16,949 nucleotides of DNA from a virus (lineage: Duplodnaviria > Heunggongvirae > Uroviricota > Caudoviricetes), in IMG/VR virus record IMGVR_UViG_2534681675_000024. The stretch is one strand, 5' to 3'. A program made the translations under genes and the position numbers. Shown one piece after another: positions 2,387 to 12,087 of the stretch. The notes under the pieces were generated by a model. It searched no databases. It had not been told where the DNA came from and saw nothing but the letters and a program-made list of their open reading frames with translations. Positions within the stretch are counted from its first letter, which is position 1; each line of letters begins with the position of its first letter.

Positions 2387-2605
2387 ATGACAGCACACAA
2401 GCCAGCATCATCAGCTATCCCAACAACTGGATACATCCGTCGCTTTCGCATGCCGGAATTGCTAGGTGTTTCACTGCCTACTATTGATAGATGGGTTAAA
2501 AATGGCACTCTTCCACGCCCAGTGAAGCTAACAGATAACGTGACTGCGTTTGATGCGGTGGAAATTAATAACTGGCTGGCAGAACGCCGCGGGAAGGTGG
2601 CCTGA
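2387..2605 (+). CDS. alpA: AlpA-family helix-turn-helix transcriptional regulator (phage excisionase/activator-like)
   Basis: 72-aa ORF with the AlpA-type HTH segment RMPELLGVSLPTIDRWVKNGTLPRPVKL. Its stop overlaps the next gene's start (TGATG). Position just downstream of int is typical of AlpA in P4-like and PICI-like elements. Confidence 0.85.
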   Translation: MTAHKPASSAIPTTGYIRRFRMPELLGVSLPTIDRWVKNGTLPRPVKLTDNVTAFDAVEINNWLAERRGKVA

Positions 2606-3036
2606 TGGAAAAGAAAAACCGCCCATTACAGGCGGCTAATTCAGATATTCGCGTATCTGATATTACGCCCCTTACAAAATCCCTTCAAGCACCAAAGCGC
2701 ACACCGAAAAAGCATCGTGCCCGAGTCTATATGCTGCGTACTGGTATAGAGGGATGGACAGAAAATGACATTCTTCGCTACTGCCGTCTGTCTTCTGGTC
2801 GTAACTATGCAACAGAGTTAGAACGCCAGCTTGGAATCACTCTGGAGCGTATCGACGAAAAGAATCCTGATGGTATCGGAACACACCTTCGCTACCGTTT
2901 CTCCTGCCGTGGTGATGTTCTGAAAGTGATCACTCATGTTAACCATCTTGCGAGCATAAATGATCACAACGGACTTTCTCAGCAGGAAATTGCCGACATT
3001 CTGAAACTCTACCCGGACGCGTTTAACGCCGCCTAA
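2605..3036 (+). CDS. Hypothetical protein (143 aa), basic N-terminus, co-transcribed with alpA
   Basis: Start is translationally coupled to the alpA stop. Composition looks protein-like and the N-terminal region is basic (KRTPKKHRARVY). No recognisable domain. Confidence 0.65.
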   Translation: MEKKNRPLQAANSDIRVSDITPLTKSLQAPKRTPKKHRARVYMLRTGIEGWTENDILRYCRLSSGRNYATELERQLGITLERIDEKNPDGIGTHLRYRFSCRGDVLKVITHVNHLASINDHNGLSQQEIADILKLYPDAFNAA

Positions 3037-3048
3037 CGGAGACTGAAA

Positions 3049-3882
3049 ATGAACATCGAAAAAAGCAGATTAATTTCTGAGGCCGCCCCTCATCTGAACG
3101 CCTCTCTGGGCACAATTAACGGTAATGAATTTGCCGCAATTGTCCCGGTTATTCCTGGTCATATCGGTGGGCGTGAAACCAATATTGTTAGCGCAAAAGC
3201 GTTACACAAAGCGTTGGGCGTGGGAAAAGACTTCTCTACATGGATCACTGATCGCATCTCTGAATATGACTTCACCATTGGGCACGATTACTCAGTCCAT
3301 AAAACAATTTCCCCAAATTTGGGGAAAAGCCCGAATGGCGCGGCTTACAGCAAGATTAAGCACTCTGGCAGACCCGGCAAAGACTATCTGTTAAGTGTCG
3401 GAATGGCGAAAGAACTGGCAATGATCGAACGCAATGATCAGGGTCGCGCTATCCGTCGTTATTTCATCCAGTGCGAGGAAGAATTACAGCGTACCGTGCC
3501 TGAAATCGCCGCCCGCTATCGTCGCCAGCTAAAAGCCCGTATCAGTGCCGCAAACAACTTTAAGCCAATGTGCGATGCGCTGAACATGGCCCGTGCCGAG
3601 CAGGGGAAAACGACGCAGCAACACCACTACACAAACGAGAGCAATATGATTTCTCGTATCGTTCTTGGTGGGCTAACTGCTAAGCAGTGGGCGCGGATAA
3701 ATGGCTATTCTGGCGAACCTCGCGACCATATGAACGCAGAACAGCTTGAACACCTCTCATATCTCGAAAGCACCAATATCACGTTAATTGATATGGGCAT
3801 GGAATATGAGCAGCGCAAAGGAGAACTCACCCGCCTGTCGCAACGCTGGCTCGCCAAGCGTCTGGAGGCGGTCCATGTTTAA
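3049..3882 (+). CDS. Phage antirepressor-like protein (AntA/AntB-type N-terminal domain, Rha/KilAC-like C-terminal region)
   Basis: 277-aa ORF with GGAG about 8 nt upstream. The N-terminal segment SAKALHKALGVGKDFSTWITDRISEYDFTIGHDY matches the AntA-type antirepressor signature. The central segment YLLSVGMAKELAMIERNDQGRAIRRYFIQCEE resembles KilAC/Rha-type regulatory domains. Confidence 0.78.
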   Translation: MNIEKSRLISEAAPHLNASLGTINGNEFAAIVPVIPGHIGGRETNIVSAKALHKALGVGKDFSTWITDRISEYDFTIGHDYSVHKTISPNLGKSPNGAAYSKIKHSGRPGKDYLLSVGMAKELAMIERNDQGRAIRRYFIQCEEELQRTVPEIAARYRRQLKARISAANNFKPMCDALNMARAEQGKTTQQHHYTNESNMISRIVLGGLTAKQWARINGYSGEPRDHMNAEQLEHLSYLESTNITLIDMGMEYEQRKGELTRLSQRWLAKRLEAVHV

Positions 3883-4054
3883 GCCGACAGGAACACCACA
3901 ACCACAAAAACGCTACAAAGATGCCCACGGAGCACTCGTTACTGTCGAAAGCGTGTCTCACAACCGAGTGACGTTTTATCGCGACGGGTATCAATCGCCA
4001 TGCGTACAACCGCTGGCGCGTTTCATGAAGGAGTTCGCGGAGGTTAACCAATGA
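3875..4054 (+). CDS. Small hypothetical protein (59 aa)
   Basis: ATG at 3875 overlaps the antirepressor stop (ATGTTTAA), and its own stop overlaps the ATG at 4051. No domain recognised. Confidence 0.45.
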   Translation: MFKPTGTPQPQKRYKDAHGALVTVESVSHNRVTFYRDGYQSPCVQPLARFMKEFAEVNQ

Positions 4055-5082
4055 TACCCGTCCAGAAGAAGACATTTTCACTGGCTGGTATGTCTCCAAA
4101 ATCCAGCAATATGACGGCAAAGTCAGGCATTAATACAGCAGATACAAGCAAAGTTTATCATTTGCTGGTGGTCGGAACGGATGCCTTAACCATGCCAGAA
4201 ATCTCGGGCGATGATATTAGCGTTGAGAAGGTCAGCGGCTGCGCCAGAGAATTTCTGGTCGTAGATGACCTGTTCTGCTCGCGTAGTGACTCCACAAAAA
4301 TCTTCGTCCACGCGCGTGACGTTAACGAAATGAGCGCGATGTACTGTGCTTCTGGTGCTTCCAATAGCGAGTTTTCGGAGTCCATAAAAAAGAGCTTGCC
4401 GTTATGCGGCAACACGGTTTATGGTTATAAGGCACCTCATAAAACGGGTGCCGGGATTGGCCTCCCGCTGGAGTTATCGGCGATACATGACGCGCCAGCG
4501 TCTTTTTTTGTATCGGCGCACACGCACACCTTATCAATGGTGGGCTGTATGGGGCTACCTTCGGGTAGGCTGGTTTCCGATAACGCCAGTAAGGCCAACT
4601 CCGTACAGTCCACCGCCAGCAAGATTGGTCTCTTCTGCGGTGGTTATAACAAGCCAACGTTATCGGAGGATGCCACATGCTGGCTACTACCCCTACCCAA
4701 AAACCGCAATTTATCTGGATTATCGCCGCAGTTCGCCGCGATTGCCCGACAATTACCGCCAAAATTCATCATATTGCTGCCGAGTCTGAACGCGATGCTC
4801 GCCGTTCTCTGGTGCGCGATCACGTCTGCTTTTTTGCTGGTCGTATCCGCATGGAGGTGGCACATGATTAAAACCTACGATGTGCATATGGACCCCCTCG
4901 AACGCACAAGCCAGATCATCACACTGACAGAAGTGATTAATGACATTCTGGTGAGCAACTCTCCCTCACGAGACGAAAAACTGAAGGCGTTACTCGCGAT
5001 ATTGGATCTCGCCGTTCGTGACGTTCATTTCCTGCTGGAAGGTGGCGAAATGCCAGTAAAACGGGGGGCAACCAATGAATAA
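4051..5082 (+). CDS. Uncertain long ORF (343 codons); possibly several short genes or a partly non-coding leader
   Basis: The frame is open for 343 codons and has a good SD (GGAGG, 7 nt before ATG 4051). However, the first ~270 residues are unusually Ser/Cys/Trp-rich, the frame contains a terminator-like hairpin plus T7 run (4489-4509), and two internal starts have strong SDs: 4677 in another frame (GGAGGA) and 4864 in-frame (GGAGGTGG). Confidence 0.35.
4489..4509 (+). terminator. Terminator-like hairpin (GACGC-GCCA-GCGTC) followed by T7
   Basis: A 5-bp GC stem with a 4-nt loop is followed immediately by TTTTTTT. The stem is short, so function is uncertain. It lies inside the dubious 4051-5082 ORF. 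Confidence 0.3.
4864..5082 (+). CDS. Small hypothetical protein (72 aa), alternative in-frame start within the 4051-5082 ORF
   Basis: A strong SD (GGAGGTGG, 4853-4860) sits 3 nt before ATG 4864. The downstream sequence has ordinary helical-protein composition, and its stop overlaps the next start (ATGAATAA at 5075). Confidence 0.4.
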   Translation: MIKTYDVHMDPLERTSQIITLTEVINDILVSNSPSRDEKLKALLAILDLAVRDVHFLLEGGEMPVKRGATNE

Positions 5083-5269
5083 CTCAATTAATACCCCTCG
5101 CCTTACGTCCGCACTTCAATTAATCGAGCAAGCAGCGGCTGTCCTGGTTGCTGTCAGTCTTTCGGCTGAAGAAATGGACGCTACTGATGTCGTGGATGCG
5201 ATTAAAGCGTGCTCATCTTTGGTTAACGATGCCCGTGCAGAGCTGGTAATTCTTGGGGGTGAAAAATGA
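5075..5269 (+). CDS. Small hypothetical protein (64 aa)
   Basis: G-rich SD-like stretch upstream. Overlaps the upstream stop and the downstream start (ATGA at 5266). Ala/Leu-rich helical composition. Confidence 0.55.
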   Translation: MNNSINTPRLTSALQLIEQAAAVLVAVSLSAEEMDATDVVDAIKACSSLVNDARAELVILGGEK

Positions 5270-5529
5270 ATATCAACTTAATTTATCGTCATCCGTGTGA
5301 GCTGGAAATTGAATCATTGCTGAGCCGTGAAGAGCCATATCCAGACACATTCACTCTTGCAGATCGCACGACTGAACGGCTTACCAGAGCGCGCACAGGT
5401 CTGGTTCATGTGATGAATGAGATTCTTCCATCGGTGGGAGGGGAACAGGCGACAGTAATCACTAGCTGGCTACAAAAAGTTACCTCTCTGATAGATATCA
5501 GTTTAATCGATGCGGAGAGTGCGAAATGA
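5266..5529 (+). CDS. Small hypothetical protein (87 aa)
   Basis: SD GGGGGTGA before ATG 5266; ATGA overlaps at both ends (translational coupling). Confidence 0.6.
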   Translation: MNINLIYRHPCELEIESLLSREEPYPDTFTLADRTTERLTRARTGLVHVMNEILPSVGGEQATVITSWLQKVTSLIDISLIDAESAK

Positions 5530-5747
5530 CCAACATCCAGCTCATCGAAGCGCAATGTCGCATCGAACAGGTTCAGACTGTTTTAGGGTTCTGGCTTGAA
5601 GGGGCCAGCCCCAGCAACAGAGACAAGTTAATGATTGGCGCGGTTATGTCACTGCTCAATGGCGTACCAGAAGCTATTCAGGAAGCGGACGAATTGTTGG
5701 GCAAATATGAGTTACAGAATCATTCAGGCGAGGCGAAACATGAATAA
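5526..5747 (+). CDS. Small hypothetical protein (73 aa)
   Basis: Coupled to its neighbours at both ends (ATGA overlap upstream, ATGAATAA overlap downstream). N-terminus (MTNIQLIEAQ) resembles that of the 5075 ORF ([20 protein letters not shown]), suggesting possible paralogy. Confidence 0.6.
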   Translation: MTNIQLIEAQCRIEQVQTVLGFWLEGASPSNRDKLMIGAVMSLLNGVPEAIQEADELLGKYELQNHSGEAKHE

Positions 5748-6342
5748 TTTCTTAACATTCCATGCAGAAGCAACGCCTGACGGCGTAAACATCATGCACC
5801 GCAGCAACGATGGCATGACAGAACGCGTTGAGACCGTCTCATATATTGATGCCGTAAATCGTCTGGATGCCGGGGATTATGACGATAAACCAGATGAAGG
5901 CATGTTTATACATCTCGCTATTGCCAGTGGCGGCAACCAGGGATATTTCGATTACACATCACAGCATCACGTGATTATGTGGCGCTGGCTGATAGCAACA
6001 GCATTCATCAATGAAATGAGAAAGGAAAACGGCACCGTCAGCATTATTGATGACAGTGGCAATCATTCCGTGGTTTCTGTTTATTCCAATGGCATCGTCG
6101 CCATGCCGCTGTATCCAGTAGCAGAGCGCCTCGCTATGGCAAACAACATTGAGGGCGCAATGATCGAGAAATATGGTGTTGATGTCGGAACAAAGAATGC
6201 CATCATTTTTTACAGCAACATGTTCGATGTCGAACAGGGAGCACTCACTTCGTTTGGGCGAGAAGTGCTTGCCGATCTTCACAACAGCTTTATTGCCGAA
6301 CTAAACGAAAACGGCATCCCAGAAGCACCAGTGACGCACTAA
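5740..6342 (+). CDS. Hypothetical protein (200 aa), immediately upstream of the primase
   Basis: ATG 5740 overlaps the upstream stop (ATGAATAA). The ORF track's longer 5635 start is probably an over-extension. No domain recognised. Confidence 0.65.
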   Translation: MNNFLTFHAEATPDGVNIMHRSNDGMTERVETVSYIDAVNRLDAGDYDDKPDEGMFIHLAIASGGNQGYFDYTSQHHVIMWRWLIATAFINEMRKENGTVSIIDDSGNHSVVSVYSNGIVAMPLYPVAERLAMANNIEGAMIEKYGVDVGTKNAIIFYSNMFDVEQGALTSFGREVLADLHNSFIAELNENGIPEAPVTH

Positions 6343-6354
6343 ACGGGGGCCAGA

Positions 6355-8706
6355 ATGCGAAACATTGATCTTATCCGTCAGGTTATCAGTGCGTCTGAAA
6401 ACAACTGGCCTCATGTGCTGGGCTGTCTGAACATAAATGTCCCTGACTCTCCGCGCCGTCATGCTCCCTGCCCTGCATGTGGGGGCAAAGATCGATTCCG
6501 GTTCGACGACAACGGGCGCGGTAGCTTCATCTGTAATCAGTGCGGCGCTGGTGATGGGCTGGATTTAATTAAACGCGTAAATAACTGCGACACAACAGAG
6601 GCGGCGCTTCTTGCCGCTGATGTTCTGGGTATTGATTACCGGACAACGGAAACACCAGAAGCCACCAGCCAGAAACGGGAACAACTGGAAACCGAGCGCC
6701 AGCGACGCGAACAGGAGCGCCTGAAAAGGGCAGAGAAGGACGAACAACAAAGACGGGATACGTTTTCCCGTCAGTTTGATGACATGCGCAGAAAGGCTGT
6801 AAACGGCAAATCTGATTATCTGGTTGCGAAAGGGGTAGGTGATTTTACATTCCCCGTGTTGCCAGATGGATCTCTGTTGCTGGCGCTGGTGGATAAATCC
6901 GGCGCAGTCACAGCAGCACAGACTATTACCTCACATGGTGAAAAAAGACTCCTGACAGGTTCAGCAAAGCGGGGGGCGTATCACGCCATAAACGCACAGA
7001 AACGACCTCACAGCATCATAATTGCTGAGGGTGTGGCTACCGCCCTGTCGTGCCATTTAATTCGCCCTGACGCAATGACAGTGGCAGCAATCGACGCTGG
7101 CAACCTGTTGCCAGTAGCGGAAGTCATGCGCAGAACATATCCACAGGCACAAATCATCATTGCCGCAGATAACGATCACCAGCAAGGAAACTCCGAAAGT
7201 GGAGGGATCAACACGGGGAAAGATGCCGCAGAGAGGGCCGCTATTTCCGTAGCTGGCTGGGTGTCTCTGCCACCGACTGACTATAAAGCCGACTGGAACG
7301 ACTATCACCAACAACACGGGCTGGCGGCAGCCACAGCAGCATTTAAAGATTCGATGTACCAGCCACGGGGGAAAGGGGCGCAGGTGAAAAATCACAAACA
7401 GTCAGTCGGGGCGCTTAATGAGATCAGTTCTGGCGAGGTGTTAAGCGATGATGAAATTGCTGTCCTCAAAGAAATCAACCGGACGTTTACGCATGTCACC
7501 ATCGGCGGGAAACACAAGGTGGTGTCGCTAAAGCCTTCTCAAACCGGCGGTGTATCGCACGTTTTCGAGGATTTATCACAATTTCAGCATTATTTTCATC
7601 ATAAACCGAGAGTCGCCAGAAAGCTGGCGGGATCGGCGTGGCTGTCATGGAGTGGGAAGAACTACAAGCCAGGAGGCGTAGGATTTTATCCAGTACCAGA
7701 CAAATGCCCTGACGATGTTTTTAATCTGTATGAGGGGCTGGCACTGGAACCAATTGAAGGAGATTGCACGGTATACCTTAATCACCTGTTGCAGGTTGTC
7801 TGTGCCGGTAATGAAGAGGCATACCAATATCTTATCCAGTGGATGGCGCACATTATCCAAAAGCCTGATGAAAAACCGTCCGTGGCAATCGTGATGAAAT
7901 CTGTCCCGGGCACAGGGAAAGGCACAACGGTTAAACCGCTGCTGCAAATACTGGGGCAGTACGCCGCCCACATTAACGGGGCGGGACATATTTCAGGGCG
8001 CTTCAATTCAATACTTGCTAACAAGCTACTGGTATTTGCTGACGAAGTGACGATCCACAAGCCGTCTGAAGCTGACAGACTTAAAGCGATTATTAGCGAA
8101 CCGACGTTTAACCTTGAGCGCAAGGGAATTGATGCTGAACCAATGCCGAATTTTGCCCGGTTGATATTTGCCAGTAACAGCACACAGGTATTACAGGCGG
8201 GGATAAGAGAGCGCCGCTATCTCGTGCTTGAGCCATCTCCTGAAAAAGCACAGAGCCGGGAGTATTTTGATCGGCTGTACAGTTGGCTTAATGATGGCGG
8301 TGCCGCAAAGTTGCTTTGGCATCTTAAAGGGGTGGATCTCTCAGGTTTTGACCCTCAACGAGCGCCACAGACCGATGCCTTACGTGAAGAAATCTTGCTG
8401 GGGCTGTCTGGCGTTGAATTGTTTCTTTATGGCGAGCTAATCAATGAACCTCCGTTTAATGGCGAAGTCCGTTTGTTTGCAAAGGATATGGTTAGTCGAT
8501 TTGTAGCGTGGTCGCTTGAGCGTGGGGAAAAGCTTAAAGAGCCAGCAGCCAGATCACTACTGGGTAAATCACTTGCACAAATGGGGCTGGTGAAGCATGG
8601 AAGACCAGACCGAGGGAATGGCGTGTTCTACGAACTACCAGAGGTCGGAGTTCTACAGGCTGCGTTTGCCCGTCTGATCGGTATGGGGGGTTATGATGTT
8701 TTTTAA
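6355..8706 (+). CDS. Replicative primase-helicase (zinc-finger + Toprim primase domain, C-terminal P-loop NTPase; P4 alpha / D5-like)
   Basis: 783-aa ORF with a G-rich SD. It has an N-terminal zinc-binding pair (CPACGG ... CNQCG), a Toprim-like acidic core (IIIAEGVATALS and AADNDHQQGN), and a C-terminal Walker A-like loop (VPGTGKGTT) with a Walker B-like hhhhDE (LLVFADEV). Size is close to P4 alpha. Confidence 0.9.
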   Translation: MRNIDLIRQVISASENNWPHVLGCLNINVPDSPRRHAPCPACGGKDRFRFDDNGRGSFICNQCGAGDGLDLIKRVNNCDTTEAALLAADVLGIDYRTTETPEATSQKREQLETERQRREQERLKRAEKDEQQRRDTFSRQFDDMRRKAVNGKSDYLVAKGVGDFTFPVLPDGSLLLALVDKSGAVTAAQTITSHGEKRLLTGSAKRGAYHAINAQKRPHSIIIAEGVATALSCHLIRPDAMTVAAIDAGNLLPVAEVMRRTYPQAQIIIAADNDHQQGNSESGGINTGKDAAERAAISVAGWVSLPPTDYKADWNDYHQQHGLAAATAAFKDSMYQPRGKGAQVKNHKQSVGALNEISSGEVLSDDEIAVLKEINRTFTHVTIGGKHKVVSLKPSQTGGVSHVFEDLSQFQHYFHHKPRVARKLAGSAWLSWSGKNYKPGGVGFYPVPDKCPDDVFNLYEGLALEPIEGDCTVYLNHLLQVVCAGNEEAYQYLIQWMAHIIQKPDEKPSVAIVMKSVPGTGKGTTVKPLLQILGQYAAHINGAGHISGRFNSILANKLLVFADEVTIHKPSEADRLKAIISEPTFNLERKGIDAEPMPNFARLIFASNSTQVLQAGIRERRYLVLEPSPEKAQSREYFDRLYSWLNDGGAAKLLWHLKGVDLSGFDPQRAPQTDALREEILLGLSGVELFLYGELINEPPFNGEVRLFAKDMVSRFVAWSLERGEKLKEPAARSLLGKSLAQMGLVKHGRPDRGNGVFYELPEVGVLQAAFARLIGMGGYDVF

Positions 8707-10442: not shown

Positions 10443-10616
10443 ATGGCTATTTCAGTAAAGCCAGTATTGATAAGTGAGAAGCAAATGGAAGCGATAAAGA
10501 AAATTCAGGAGGAGCAGCGTAAAAAATCAGAGGTAGGAGTTGCGCCAACGATCCACGAAATTGCTCGGGGATTAATGGATAAGGCGCTGGCTTACACTTT
10601 AACTGGACGTGGGTAA
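10443..10616 (+). CDS. Small hypothetical protein (57 aa), first gene of a three-gene operon
   Basis: Not in the supplied ORF track (below its length threshold). ATG 10443 is preceded by a strong SD (AAGGGGG). The stop at 10614-10616 lies 4 nt before the next ATG (10621). Helical composition; a regulatory role is only a guess. Confidence 0.5.
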
Positions 10617-10620
10617 ATTT

Positions 10621-12087
10621 ATGGCTACTTGGCAACAAGGAATCAACTCAGGCGGTTTTCTGGCTGGCATCGGTACGCAAAATGAGAATGCGCCAAAGGC
10701 AAGCGACATTAACGCAACGCTTGGTCTGATCCGCGAAAACAATGAACTGGCTCGCTCAGGTGCAAATAACGTTGGTCTGACCGCGTTACGTGGTCTGGCT
10801 GGAGTTGCTGATATTTATAAGCAGGAACAGCAACAGAAAGCGATTAATGCGTTCAATAAGGTTCACGCTGATGCATGGGCTTCTGGTGATCCATCGGGAC
10901 TATTTAAGTTTGCCCAGGAAAATCCAGCGTTTGTTGCACAGGTACAACAGGCGTTTTCTGGTCTTAATGATCAGCAACGCAACGATATGGGCGATTTAGC
11001 CATGAGGGCTAACGTCGCTCTTTCTCAGGGACCGGAAGCCTACAGTAAATTCATTACTGACAACAAGGACAGGTTAAATCGCGTTGGTGCTAATGCTGAC
11101 TGGATGATTCAGACAGGTATCCAGAATCCAGAGCAGCTATCACACATGCTGACTACTATGTCTCTCGGTGCGCTTGGACCAGAAAAGGCGTTTGCTGTTC
11201 AGGATAAGATGGTTGGTCGTGAGATTGACCGAGGCCAGCTGGCAGAGACAATCCGCAGCAATAAGGCTGGAGAGGCACTTCAGGCGAGAGGGCAGGATAT
11301 TAGCCGAGCAAATGCGTTAACGTCAGCATATGCACCAACAGCCGCAATGCAGAATTACAATCAGTACGCGCAAATGTTAAAGGCGGACCCAGAGGGGGCG
11401 GCGGCATTTGCGGCAGCGGCTGGAATTAATACAAACGCCAAAAAATTAATGAGTGTTAGAGAAAACGATGATGGCACTGTCACAAAATACTACACAGACG
11501 GAAGTGAAGAGCAGGGAAAACTAAACCAGCCAATATCTGGAGATGGGTTTCGTCCAATAGCTTTGCCAACAGCCCAAAAGATCATGGAAAAGTCGCCAGA
11601 AGGGGCTAAAAAAGCTGCTGGATTTGCATACAGGGTTAGGGATGCTCTTGATTCAATAGATACACTGAAAGACCAGCTTAGCCCACAGCGAGTGGCGATC
11701 ATTAATAATGCTTTGGGTAATGGGACGCTGGCTAACTTAACGCTCAGCCCAGCAGAGCAGCAATACGTTGTTAATGCTAATGACGCAATAATGGCAATAC
11801 TCCGTCAGGAAACAGGGGCATCTATCCTACCAGCTGAAATGTCCAAATATTATCAAATGTATTTCCCTCAGCCTGGTGATTCCACAAAAACCATTGATAC
11901 CAAGCGCCGGAAGATGGAAAACCAGTTCAATTCGCTGAAAGCTGCTTCTGGTCGAGCTTATGATGCTTTGCGGGTTATTTCAGCAGTTGACAGAGGAACT
12001 TCTTCTTCGTCGCAGACATTGCCGCAATCTGAGCAGGTATCACAGCCAGCAGCCAGCAGTAATTTTTCTTCACTATGGGGTGATTAA
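10621..12087 (+). CDS. Large hypothetical protein (488 aa), Cys-free, Ala/Gln/Asn/Gly-rich, predicted mostly alpha-helical
   Basis: ATG 10621 chosen over the track's 10609. No Cys, few aromatics, Q/A-rich low-complexity stretches, and no enzymatic motif I can identify. Its stop overlaps the next start (TAATG). Confidence 0.8.

Follow-up and report, generated by a model that had tools for sequence, protein, structure and literature searches.

The subject of this work is a 343-codon open reading frame (ORF) at positions 4051–5082 of a 16,949-nt sequence from a virus of the class Caudoviricetes (IMG/VR record IMGVR_UViG_2534681675_000024), the whole of which is referred to below as the window. 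We consider it quite probable that the region is the immunity switch of a satellite of the P4-like or phage-inducible chromosomal island (PICI) type and that the 343-codon frame is the counterpart of eta in satellite P4. The mechanism is a known one; the variant found here is that the cell-division inhibitor gene icd is overlapped out of frame and the gene following it is nested in frame. This conclusion is based on sequence features, homology, covariation within the immunity RNA, joint variation of its loop and targets, and conservation of the open frame in related loci.

Organization of the long open reading frame

The eta-like ORF lies on the plus strand, begins with ATG, and is labelled "ash family protein" in RefSeq. 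The original prediction, which was made from the sequence alone, regarded a frame of this length as unlikely by chance, and the probability calculated at the base composition of the window is indeed ~5 × 10−9. All of the embedded features described below, namely an antisense piece of a terminase gene, a candidate promoter, two RNA genes, icd, and a 72-codon gene, are located within positions 4051–5082.

The start context of the ORF (4039–4054, plus strand) consists of a Shine–Dalgarno (SD) sequence GGAGG at 4039–4043 and the ATG at 4051, which overlaps the stop codon TGA (4052–4054) of the upstream gene DUF4222 (3875–4054, plus strand, Pfam match). By its sequence, the ATGA at 4051–4054 is a translational-coupling junction. 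At the other end, the stop codon TAA (5080–5082) is overlapped by the next gene, the ATG of which is at position 5075. From 2387 to 6342, the ORFs of the operon overlap one another with hardly a break, the 1-kb non-protein region being bridged by the long frame.

Several details of the original prediction were recovered by our calculations. A terminator scan found the hairpin GACGCGCCAGCGTC (4489–4502) followed by TTTTTTT (4503–4509), and two internal starts are preceded by SD sequences: GGAGG at 4665–4669 before ATG 4677 in another frame (a 64-aa ORF ending at 4871) and GGAGG at 4853–4857 before the in-frame ATG 4864. The description of residues 1–270 as rich in Ser, Cys, and Trp has to be amended; Ser (13.0%) and Cys (3.0%) are clearly high, while Trp is 1.5% overall, and its enrichment (6.5%) is confined to residues 210–271, which correspond to icd read in a different frame. 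The two RNA genes, the antisense terminase fragment with its pac-like sequence, and the start of the ORF on the upstream stop codon were not part of that prediction.

RNA elements within the frame

The first RNA gene, at 4432–4508 on the plus strand, is an isrK (seqA-type) RNA that matches the Rfam model RF01394 over its full length (1–77) with 64.3 bits against a gathering threshold of 50. It consists of two 5′ hairpins and a terminator hairpin with a U-run, and this terminator (stem 4489–4502, T-run 4503–4509) is the one found independently by the terminator scan. The second RNA gene, at 4533–4620 on the same strand, is a C4 (CI-type) antisense immunity RNA (Rfam RF01695, 77.1 bits against a gathering threshold of 45), the specificity loop of which is UUUCCGAUAACG (4574–4585, plus strand). 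Two plus-strand sites are complementary to this loop: the upstream target GTTATCGG at 4473–4480, in a single-stranded part of isrK, and the downstream target of the seqC/b2 type, CGTTATCGGAGG, at 4658–4669, which can form 12 base pairs with the loop, two of them G-U, and covers the SD sequence of icd at 4665–4669.

In 19 sequences, including P4 CI, compensatory changes were observed at 18 of the 28 consensus pairs of C4, and the loop and both targets change together across at least 12 specificities. The order isrK, C4, icd is the same in 19/19 genome loci, which come from various Enterobacterales and were retrieved through the Icd protein. Judged by these comparisons, the RNA switch is functional in this family. 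It should be noted that the Rfam c4-a1b1 model remained below its threshold in the window, whereas isrK passed, and that RNAduplex, applied to the whole C4 RNA and its targets, unfolded the entire RNA; loop/target complementarity and covariation were used instead.

A candidate constitutive promoter, which would correspond to PLE of P4, is located at 4396–4425 on the plus strand and comprises the −35 hexamer TTGCCG (4396–4401), an 18-nt spacer, and the −10 hexamer TATGGT (4420–4425), with a predicted transcript start near G4432. It was derived from alignment: both hexamers are kept in 20 loci including P4, where they are colinear with those of the window, and the spacer between them is variable. 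The peptide motifs KKGLP and VYGY seem conserved because the promoter hexamers underlie them.

In P4, the Rho-dependent terminator timm lies in kil and is suppressed by translation, and the CI RNA is matured by RNase P and PNPase. A possible counterpart of timm in the window is the stretch 4684–4761 (plus strand) at the 5′ end of icd, which contains 37% C and 15% G; its excess of C over G is at the 99.8th percentile within the window, and it may serve as a Rho-loading site.

Unrelated phages (Stx, P1-like, and Salmonella phages) resemble the ORF in nucleotide sequence only over nt 4415–4718, and some of their records label the similar stretch as C4 and isrK.

A comparison of elements that are otherwise more than 93% identical (window positions ~4450–4676 against loci L001, L023–L029, and L031, the last being the E. 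coli PICI EcCIMP1) revealed at least four different cassettes of the isrK 3′ part, C4, and targets. The cassette lengths differ by multiples of 3, so that the ORF has 342, 343, or 355 codons. From these alignments, immunity specificity appears to be swapped by recombination with the frame kept.

Conservation of the open frame in related loci

The open frame was compared in 21 loci, i.e., the window, the 19 genome loci, and P4. In 21/21 loci, the interval from the isrK start to the icd ATG is free of stop codons in one frame, the phase of which relative to C4 is constant; the other two frames contain 60 and 72 stops. This openness is maintained across spacers between isrK and C4 of 21, 23, 24, 25, 48, 50, or 62 nt (18 genome loci with isrK called) and of 107 nt in P4. 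Upstream of the promoter, the N-terminal parts are mutually unrelated in length and sequence, and in ~18 of the 21 loci they begin, after an SD sequence, with an ATG that overlaps the preceding gene's stop codon as ATGA or ATGnnTAA. Full-length "ash family" ORFs of 329–376 aa, down to 51% identity, are present in the protein database, their N- and C-termini being freely exchanged. In 10 close relatives from E. coli/Escherichia and in EcCIMP1, the ORF is intact (342, 343, or 355 codons) despite four immunity cassettes.

The distance between C4 and the icd ATG divides the loci into two classes. In one class, with a spacer of 51 or 54 nt (12 genome loci and P4), the long frame coincides with that of icd, and icd/kil forms a nested gene within it; in the other, with a spacer of 50, 53, or 56 nt (eight loci: the window, L002, L004, L011, L012, L014, L016, and L019), the long ORF reads icd in the +1 frame. 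Stops are absent from the +1 frame over icd in 8/8 loci of this offset class, and at least one is present in 12/12 genome loci of the first class. The two spacer classes interleave on the icd tree, and when the loci are counted conservatively by lineage, the +1 frame is open in 6/6 versus 1/7 (one-sided Fisher p ~ 0.004, computed from these counts).

These comparisons, which are the sole basis of this result, show that the open frame itself is under selection. The result supports the idea, developed for P4, of translation as an antitermination signal.

Two further observations concern the frame. A second plus-strand frame is also open over the whole RNA module (4421–4789, a 122-aa ORF) in the window alone, with stops in the other 20 loci, and is probably due to chance. 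In the eta-like N-termini of L003 and L005–L009, the peptide motifs SFSRRGDEESFETSTR, FVTSTRE, and FATSTH recur within and between segments, which suggests repeated DNA elements upstream of the internal promoter.

The icd/kil-like gene and the coupled 72-codon gene

The ORF at 4677–4871 (plus strand, 64 aa) matches the NCBIfam model NF033153 (phage_ICD_like) with E = 3.7 × 10−20, and its product has 44% identity to P4 Kil. By homology, it encodes an Icd-like cell-division inhibitor, which is conserved in the 19 genome loci. Relative to the long ORF, which overlaps it completely, the gene is in the −1 frame; the ratio of nonsynonymous to synonymous polymorphism (pN/pS) in the overlap is uninformative, with four variable sites among close relatives.

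The PHROG families phrog_1743 and phrog_6928, which match 4677–4871, label Icd/Kil-like proteins as "transcriptional repressor". This label probably carries on the old annotation of the P4 cI ORF as a protein repressor; the P4 record NC_001609 still lists a "cI gene product" of 137 aa.

The 72-codon gene (4864–5082, plus strand) is in frame with the long ORF and is preceded by the SD sequence GGAGG at 4853–4857. Because its ATG overlaps the icd stop (ATGATTAA), it is placed in the +1 frame of icd, and a long ORF of the offset class consequently runs on into this gene and shares its stop codon. In the 10 close relatives, its pN/pS is 0.28 in its own frame versus 4.5 and 1.3 in the other frames, and colinear homologs, which are more distant, are present in L011, L012, and L016; these homologs confirm a real, fast-evolving small protein. 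It matched nothing in Pfam or PHROG, so that no family can be assigned, and the P4 epsilon family PF25738 gave no match to it at E ≤ 0.1.

Comparison with known systems

The same Rfam families are found in P4 (NC_001609), with isrK at 8692–8615 and C4 at 8507–8420 on the minus strand, which is the seqA/CI region. Both RNAs are spanned by a 214-codon ORF (8812–8168), which is eta; read from its likely starts, its product begins with MMMPALQKLPFSGL, and its last 65 codons are Kil. P4 eta and the window ORF have in common an N-terminal QK.xFS.L motif and the Ash region. The two systems also agree in the order of their elements (excisionase/AlpA-type operon, long ORF, internal promoter, which in the window is a candidate, seqA/isrK with terminator, CI/C4, target on the Kil/Icd ribosome-binding site (RBS), early genes, primase), in the Rfam and Pfam families matched, and in the coupling of the long ORF to the upstream gene. 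Nonsense mutations reportedly provided the evidence for antitermination by Eta translation in the 1999 study of Forti.

The following traits of the P4 type are thus present in the window: a covarying CI/C4 RNA, two sites complementary to its loop with the downstream one at the RBS of the first gene, a Kil/Icd-like gene directly after the RNA, and a coupled long ORF spanning seqA and CI. One trait is absent: kil is the in-frame tail of P4 eta, whereas icd of the window is out of frame, since the spacer between C4 and the ATG is 56 nt in the window and 54 nt in P4. The window ORF accordingly crosses icd in the +1 frame, and the nested in-frame gene encodes the 72-aa protein, not epsilon. The N-terminal part of the window ORF is ~95 codons longer and contains the antisense P22 pac/terS fragment, and the isrK–C4 spacer is 24 nt as against 107 nt in P4.

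The literature on the P4 immunity region (Forti et al. 1995 and 1999; Sabbattini et al. 1995) is summarized in PMC10111431. According to its account of Forti et al. (1999), a constitutive promoter, CI and seqA, and kil as a nested gene all lie within eta, and, in its summary of the P4 experiments, translation of Eta prevents termination of late-promoter transcripts.

The original prediction had left three readings side by side. The reading as a leader or immunity region with regulated termination, as in P4-type satellites, is the correct one, on the evidence of isrK and C4 in the frame, the Icd/Kil-like ORF at 4677, and the homology to P4 eta. Overlapping small genes do exist (icd and the 72-aa gene), as in P4, and the SD-preceded in-frame ATG 4864 of an unusual protein with an internally initiated C-terminal product formally resembles the eta/kil arrangement of P4; each of these two readings is also true in part.

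The immI region of P1/P7 (c4, icd, ant) resembles the window in having a C4-family RNA, the loop of which has one complementary site upstream and another at the icd RBS, an Icd-like first gene, and a following gene the start of which overlaps the icd stop. It differs in that the gene after icd in the window (4864–5082) has no Ant, Pfam, or PHROG match, an AntA-domain gene being located upstream (3049–3882), and in that the module of the window lies inside a long ORF of the translated type in a satellite operon.

The isrK-orf45-anrP region of the Salmonella prophage Gifsy-1 (Hershko-Shalev et al. 2016, PMC4825925) shares with the window an IsrK-family RNA with a leaky intrinsic terminator, a small ORF after isrK that is AUGA-coupled to the next gene, and conservation downstream of isrK at the nucleotide rather than the amino-acid level. 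A long overlapping ORF and an Icd-like gene are not described there, whereas in the window an Icd-like gene is accompanied by a C4 RNA whose targets covary.

Proposed mechanism and alternative explanations

In the resting state, the internal promoter (−35 at 4396, −10 at 4420) would initiate transcription near 4432, and most transcripts would end at the hairpin and T-run 4489–4509, giving an IsrK/seqA-type RNA. Read-through would yield the C4/CI RNA (4533–4620), the loop of which would pair with 4658–4669 and mask the icd SD sequence; the untranslated icd RNA, C-rich at 4684–4761, would permit Rho-dependent termination, and the downstream replication genes would be off. On induction, transcription would come from the upstream promoter of the AlpA operon, and ribosomes ending DUF4222 would restart at ATG 4051 through the ATGA overlap and translate through the pac fragment, the promoter, the RNA genes, the target, and icd (in the +1 frame) to 5082. 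Such unbroken translation would block RNA pairing and premature termination, and the operon would be read through. In this scheme, promoter use, RNA processing, Rho-dependent termination, and antitermination by translation would operate as in P4 and P1. The frame would be selected for openness, with an amino-acid sequence largely set by the embedded non-protein features.

Several points weigh against this interpretation. Analogy is the basis for promoter use, the ends of the RNAs, Rho dependence, and the translation of the long frame. A consensus sigma-70 scan did not call the candidate promoter at 4396–4425, because it matches at only 8/12 positions; the scan returned two weak sites only, as many as expected from shuffled sequences. 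In P4, the +1 frame over kil is also open, so openness of this frame is not exclusive to the offset class, and, as related loci share ancestry, the raw locus counts overstate independence. The second open frame over the RNA module of the window means that a low stop density there is possible without selection.

It could be supposed that the long frame is a by-product that is never translated as a unit, its embedded elements being conserved separately and P1-type C4–icd regulation being all that matters. The abnormal amino-acid composition would fit such a view, as would the tendency of the Prokaryotic Genome Annotation Pipeline (PGAP) to truncate the ORF as a pseudogene, the coincidence of the Pfam "Ash" domain with RNA genes that evolve by covariation, and the second frame likewise open over the module in the window. 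The N-terminal part is in keeping with it too, having neither a family match (its 127 aa gave no match in Pfam or PHROG) nor a protein-like substitution pattern: in the 10 close relatives, the 50 variable sites of the corresponding 381 nt are distributed over the codon positions as 18/12/20, and pN/pS is 0.55 versus 0.68 and 1.0 in the other frames, so that any constraint on the peptide is weak at best. A frame without function of its own would hardly be open in one fixed phase in all loci across non-homologous spacers, when the other phases contain 60 and 72 stops, or be open over icd according to the phase of eta (8/8 versus 0/12). The unrelated N-terminal segments, moreover, are all open and start on an upstream stop with an SD sequence, and in P4, according to the secondary summary in PMC10111431, translation of Eta prevents termination of late-promoter transcripts. 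We therefore regard the by-product explanation as unlikely.

Still less can be said for a functional regulatory protein of the "Ash"/Bro network, in which the sequence would matter and a shorter C-terminal isoform would start at ATG 4864: its ash-family annotation with PF10554 above threshold, the fusion to an AntA domain in some relatives (P0010 and P0022), the inclusion of P4 eta among Bro-network genes (PMC10111431), the protein-like evolution of the 72-aa C-terminal part, and a short N-terminal motif, QKKxFSLAG, kept as far as P4 are set against a sole recognized domain co-extensive with the candidate promoter and two RNA genes, residues 50–85 and 210–271 that are antisense terminase and out-of-frame icd, termini freely swapped among relatives, and an N-terminal part without third-position bias, which make it improbable.

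The frame is kept over its full length in homologs, but its substitutions are abnormal for a protein, the N-terminal part having the pattern just given and the central part showing RNA covariation. The combination that would have counted against the original prediction, a frame conserved throughout with ordinary substitution patterns, is not what is seen.

The antisense terminase fragment and pac-like sequence

On the minus strand at 4199–4305, antisense to the long ORF, there is a 107-nt fragment of the gene for a P22-type terminase small subunit (gene 3), with 93.5% identity to the middle of P22 gene 3; residues 50–85 of the long ORF are read from the antisense strand of this gene. Its similarity to gene 3 sets in precisely with base 1 of the 22-bp pac site annotated in P22, and the fragment also matches terS of P22-like prophages of E. 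coli. The pac-like 22-mer GAAGATTTTTGTGGAGTCACTA (4305 to 4284, minus strand) differs from P22 pac at five fixed positions and hardly varies among 11 EcCIMP1-like satellites, the remainder of the fragment being more variable. The conserved 22-mer is a possible packaging signal, which would indicate helpers whose TerS is of the P22 type.

No homolog of the pac fragment is present in Kapi1, the helper known to mobilize EcCIMP1, and the idea of a satellite carrying Kapi1's own pac site was dropped for this reason. A literature search on satellites of P22-type helpers with pac sites found nothing specific. A minus-strand gene (ORFs 4158–4415 and 4186–4311) was also considered and rejected: the 41-aa "terminase small subunit" called by PGAP is the terS fragment only and is too short for function.

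Element context

The window encodes an integrase, AlpA, an AntA antirepressor, DUF4222, a primase-helicase, and P22-type injectosome proteins, and in relatives the element is integrated at the tRNA-Thr gene adjoining proA. The element is an EcCIMP1-like satellite (P4-like/PICI). It resembles EcCIMP1 in the integration site seen in relatives, in gene order (int, AlpA, AntA, DUF4222, ash, icd, primase, DNA-ejection genes), in nucleotide identity of 93–97% over several blocks, and in the eta-like ORF, which in EcCIMP1 is intact at 355 codons and carries the same antisense pac fragment. The immunity cassette (isrK 3′ part, C4, and targets), the C-terminal part of the primase, and the late region are different.

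As described in the passages of PMC11773190 that we searched, EcCIMP1 is an E. coli PICI that was mobilized experimentally, at low frequency, by the P22-like phage Kapi1, and the authors of this 2025 paper call its packaging mechanism hard to characterize. In the same passages, the "Ash family protein" is named only as a conserved gene, and Icd is not mentioned.

A P22 injectosome translocase (PF16928) is the product of the window gene at 10609–12087. Over the first ~200 codons (10620–11219), this gene is 94.7% identical at the nucleotide level to the DNA transfer protein gene of Kapi1 (29085–29684), and the remainder diverges. By sequence, this pattern looks like a recent exchange of an ejection module between satellite and helper.

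Annotation of the locus

Phage_ASH (PF10554) is the sole Pfam match of the 343-aa product, with 38.6 bits against a gathering threshold of 26; NCBIfam gave nothing on the full ORF apart from a sub-threshold lipoprotein match, which was disregarded. The match covers residues 124–220, i.e., nt 4420–4710, a stretch that begins at the −10 hexamer of the candidate promoter, takes in isrK and C4, and ends at the RBS and start of icd. On P4 Eta, the same family covers residues 37–161 (L021, 8704–8330), again over the promoter −10, the RNA genes, and the RBS. Because of this coincidence, the "domain" mirrors RNA and DNA elements.

P4 epsilon belongs to PF25738 (E = 9 × 10−51), not to PF10554. In a survey of P4-like satellites (PMC8628076), PF10554 was taken as the profile of "epsilon (Ash)"; since this family mirrors the RNA module, the epsilon marker of that survey in fact detects the immunity RNA region.

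RefSeq treats the locus inconsistently, giving one long "ash family protein" (342–355 aa) in some genomes and a pseudogene plus Icd in others, and where icd is called, PGAP leaves the 72-aa gene uncalled (e.g., L001, 7062–7280). These annotation problems carry practical consequences.

Implications

Taken together, our results resolve an apparently anomalous protein into a known regulatory design. We also put forward, tentatively and with rather more doubt than confidence, a joint proposal: that eta-type ORFs are "ribosome conveyor" frames, selected only for openness and coupling in order to override an RNA switch, and that the embedded pac variant may be an EcCIMP1-type packaging signal. If this is true, the present satellite lineage would be the purest form of such a design, with a frame that crosses a pac site, a promoter, two RNA genes, and an out-of-frame icd, and whichever frame continues from eta would stay stop-free. 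The pac variant would then point to helpers with a P22-type small terminase, not to Kapi1.

The pac fragment is a testable lead on the packaging of EcCIMP1-like satellites, and, together with the use as an epsilon marker of PF10554, a family that mirrors RNA genes, it may prove more useful in practice than the ORF.

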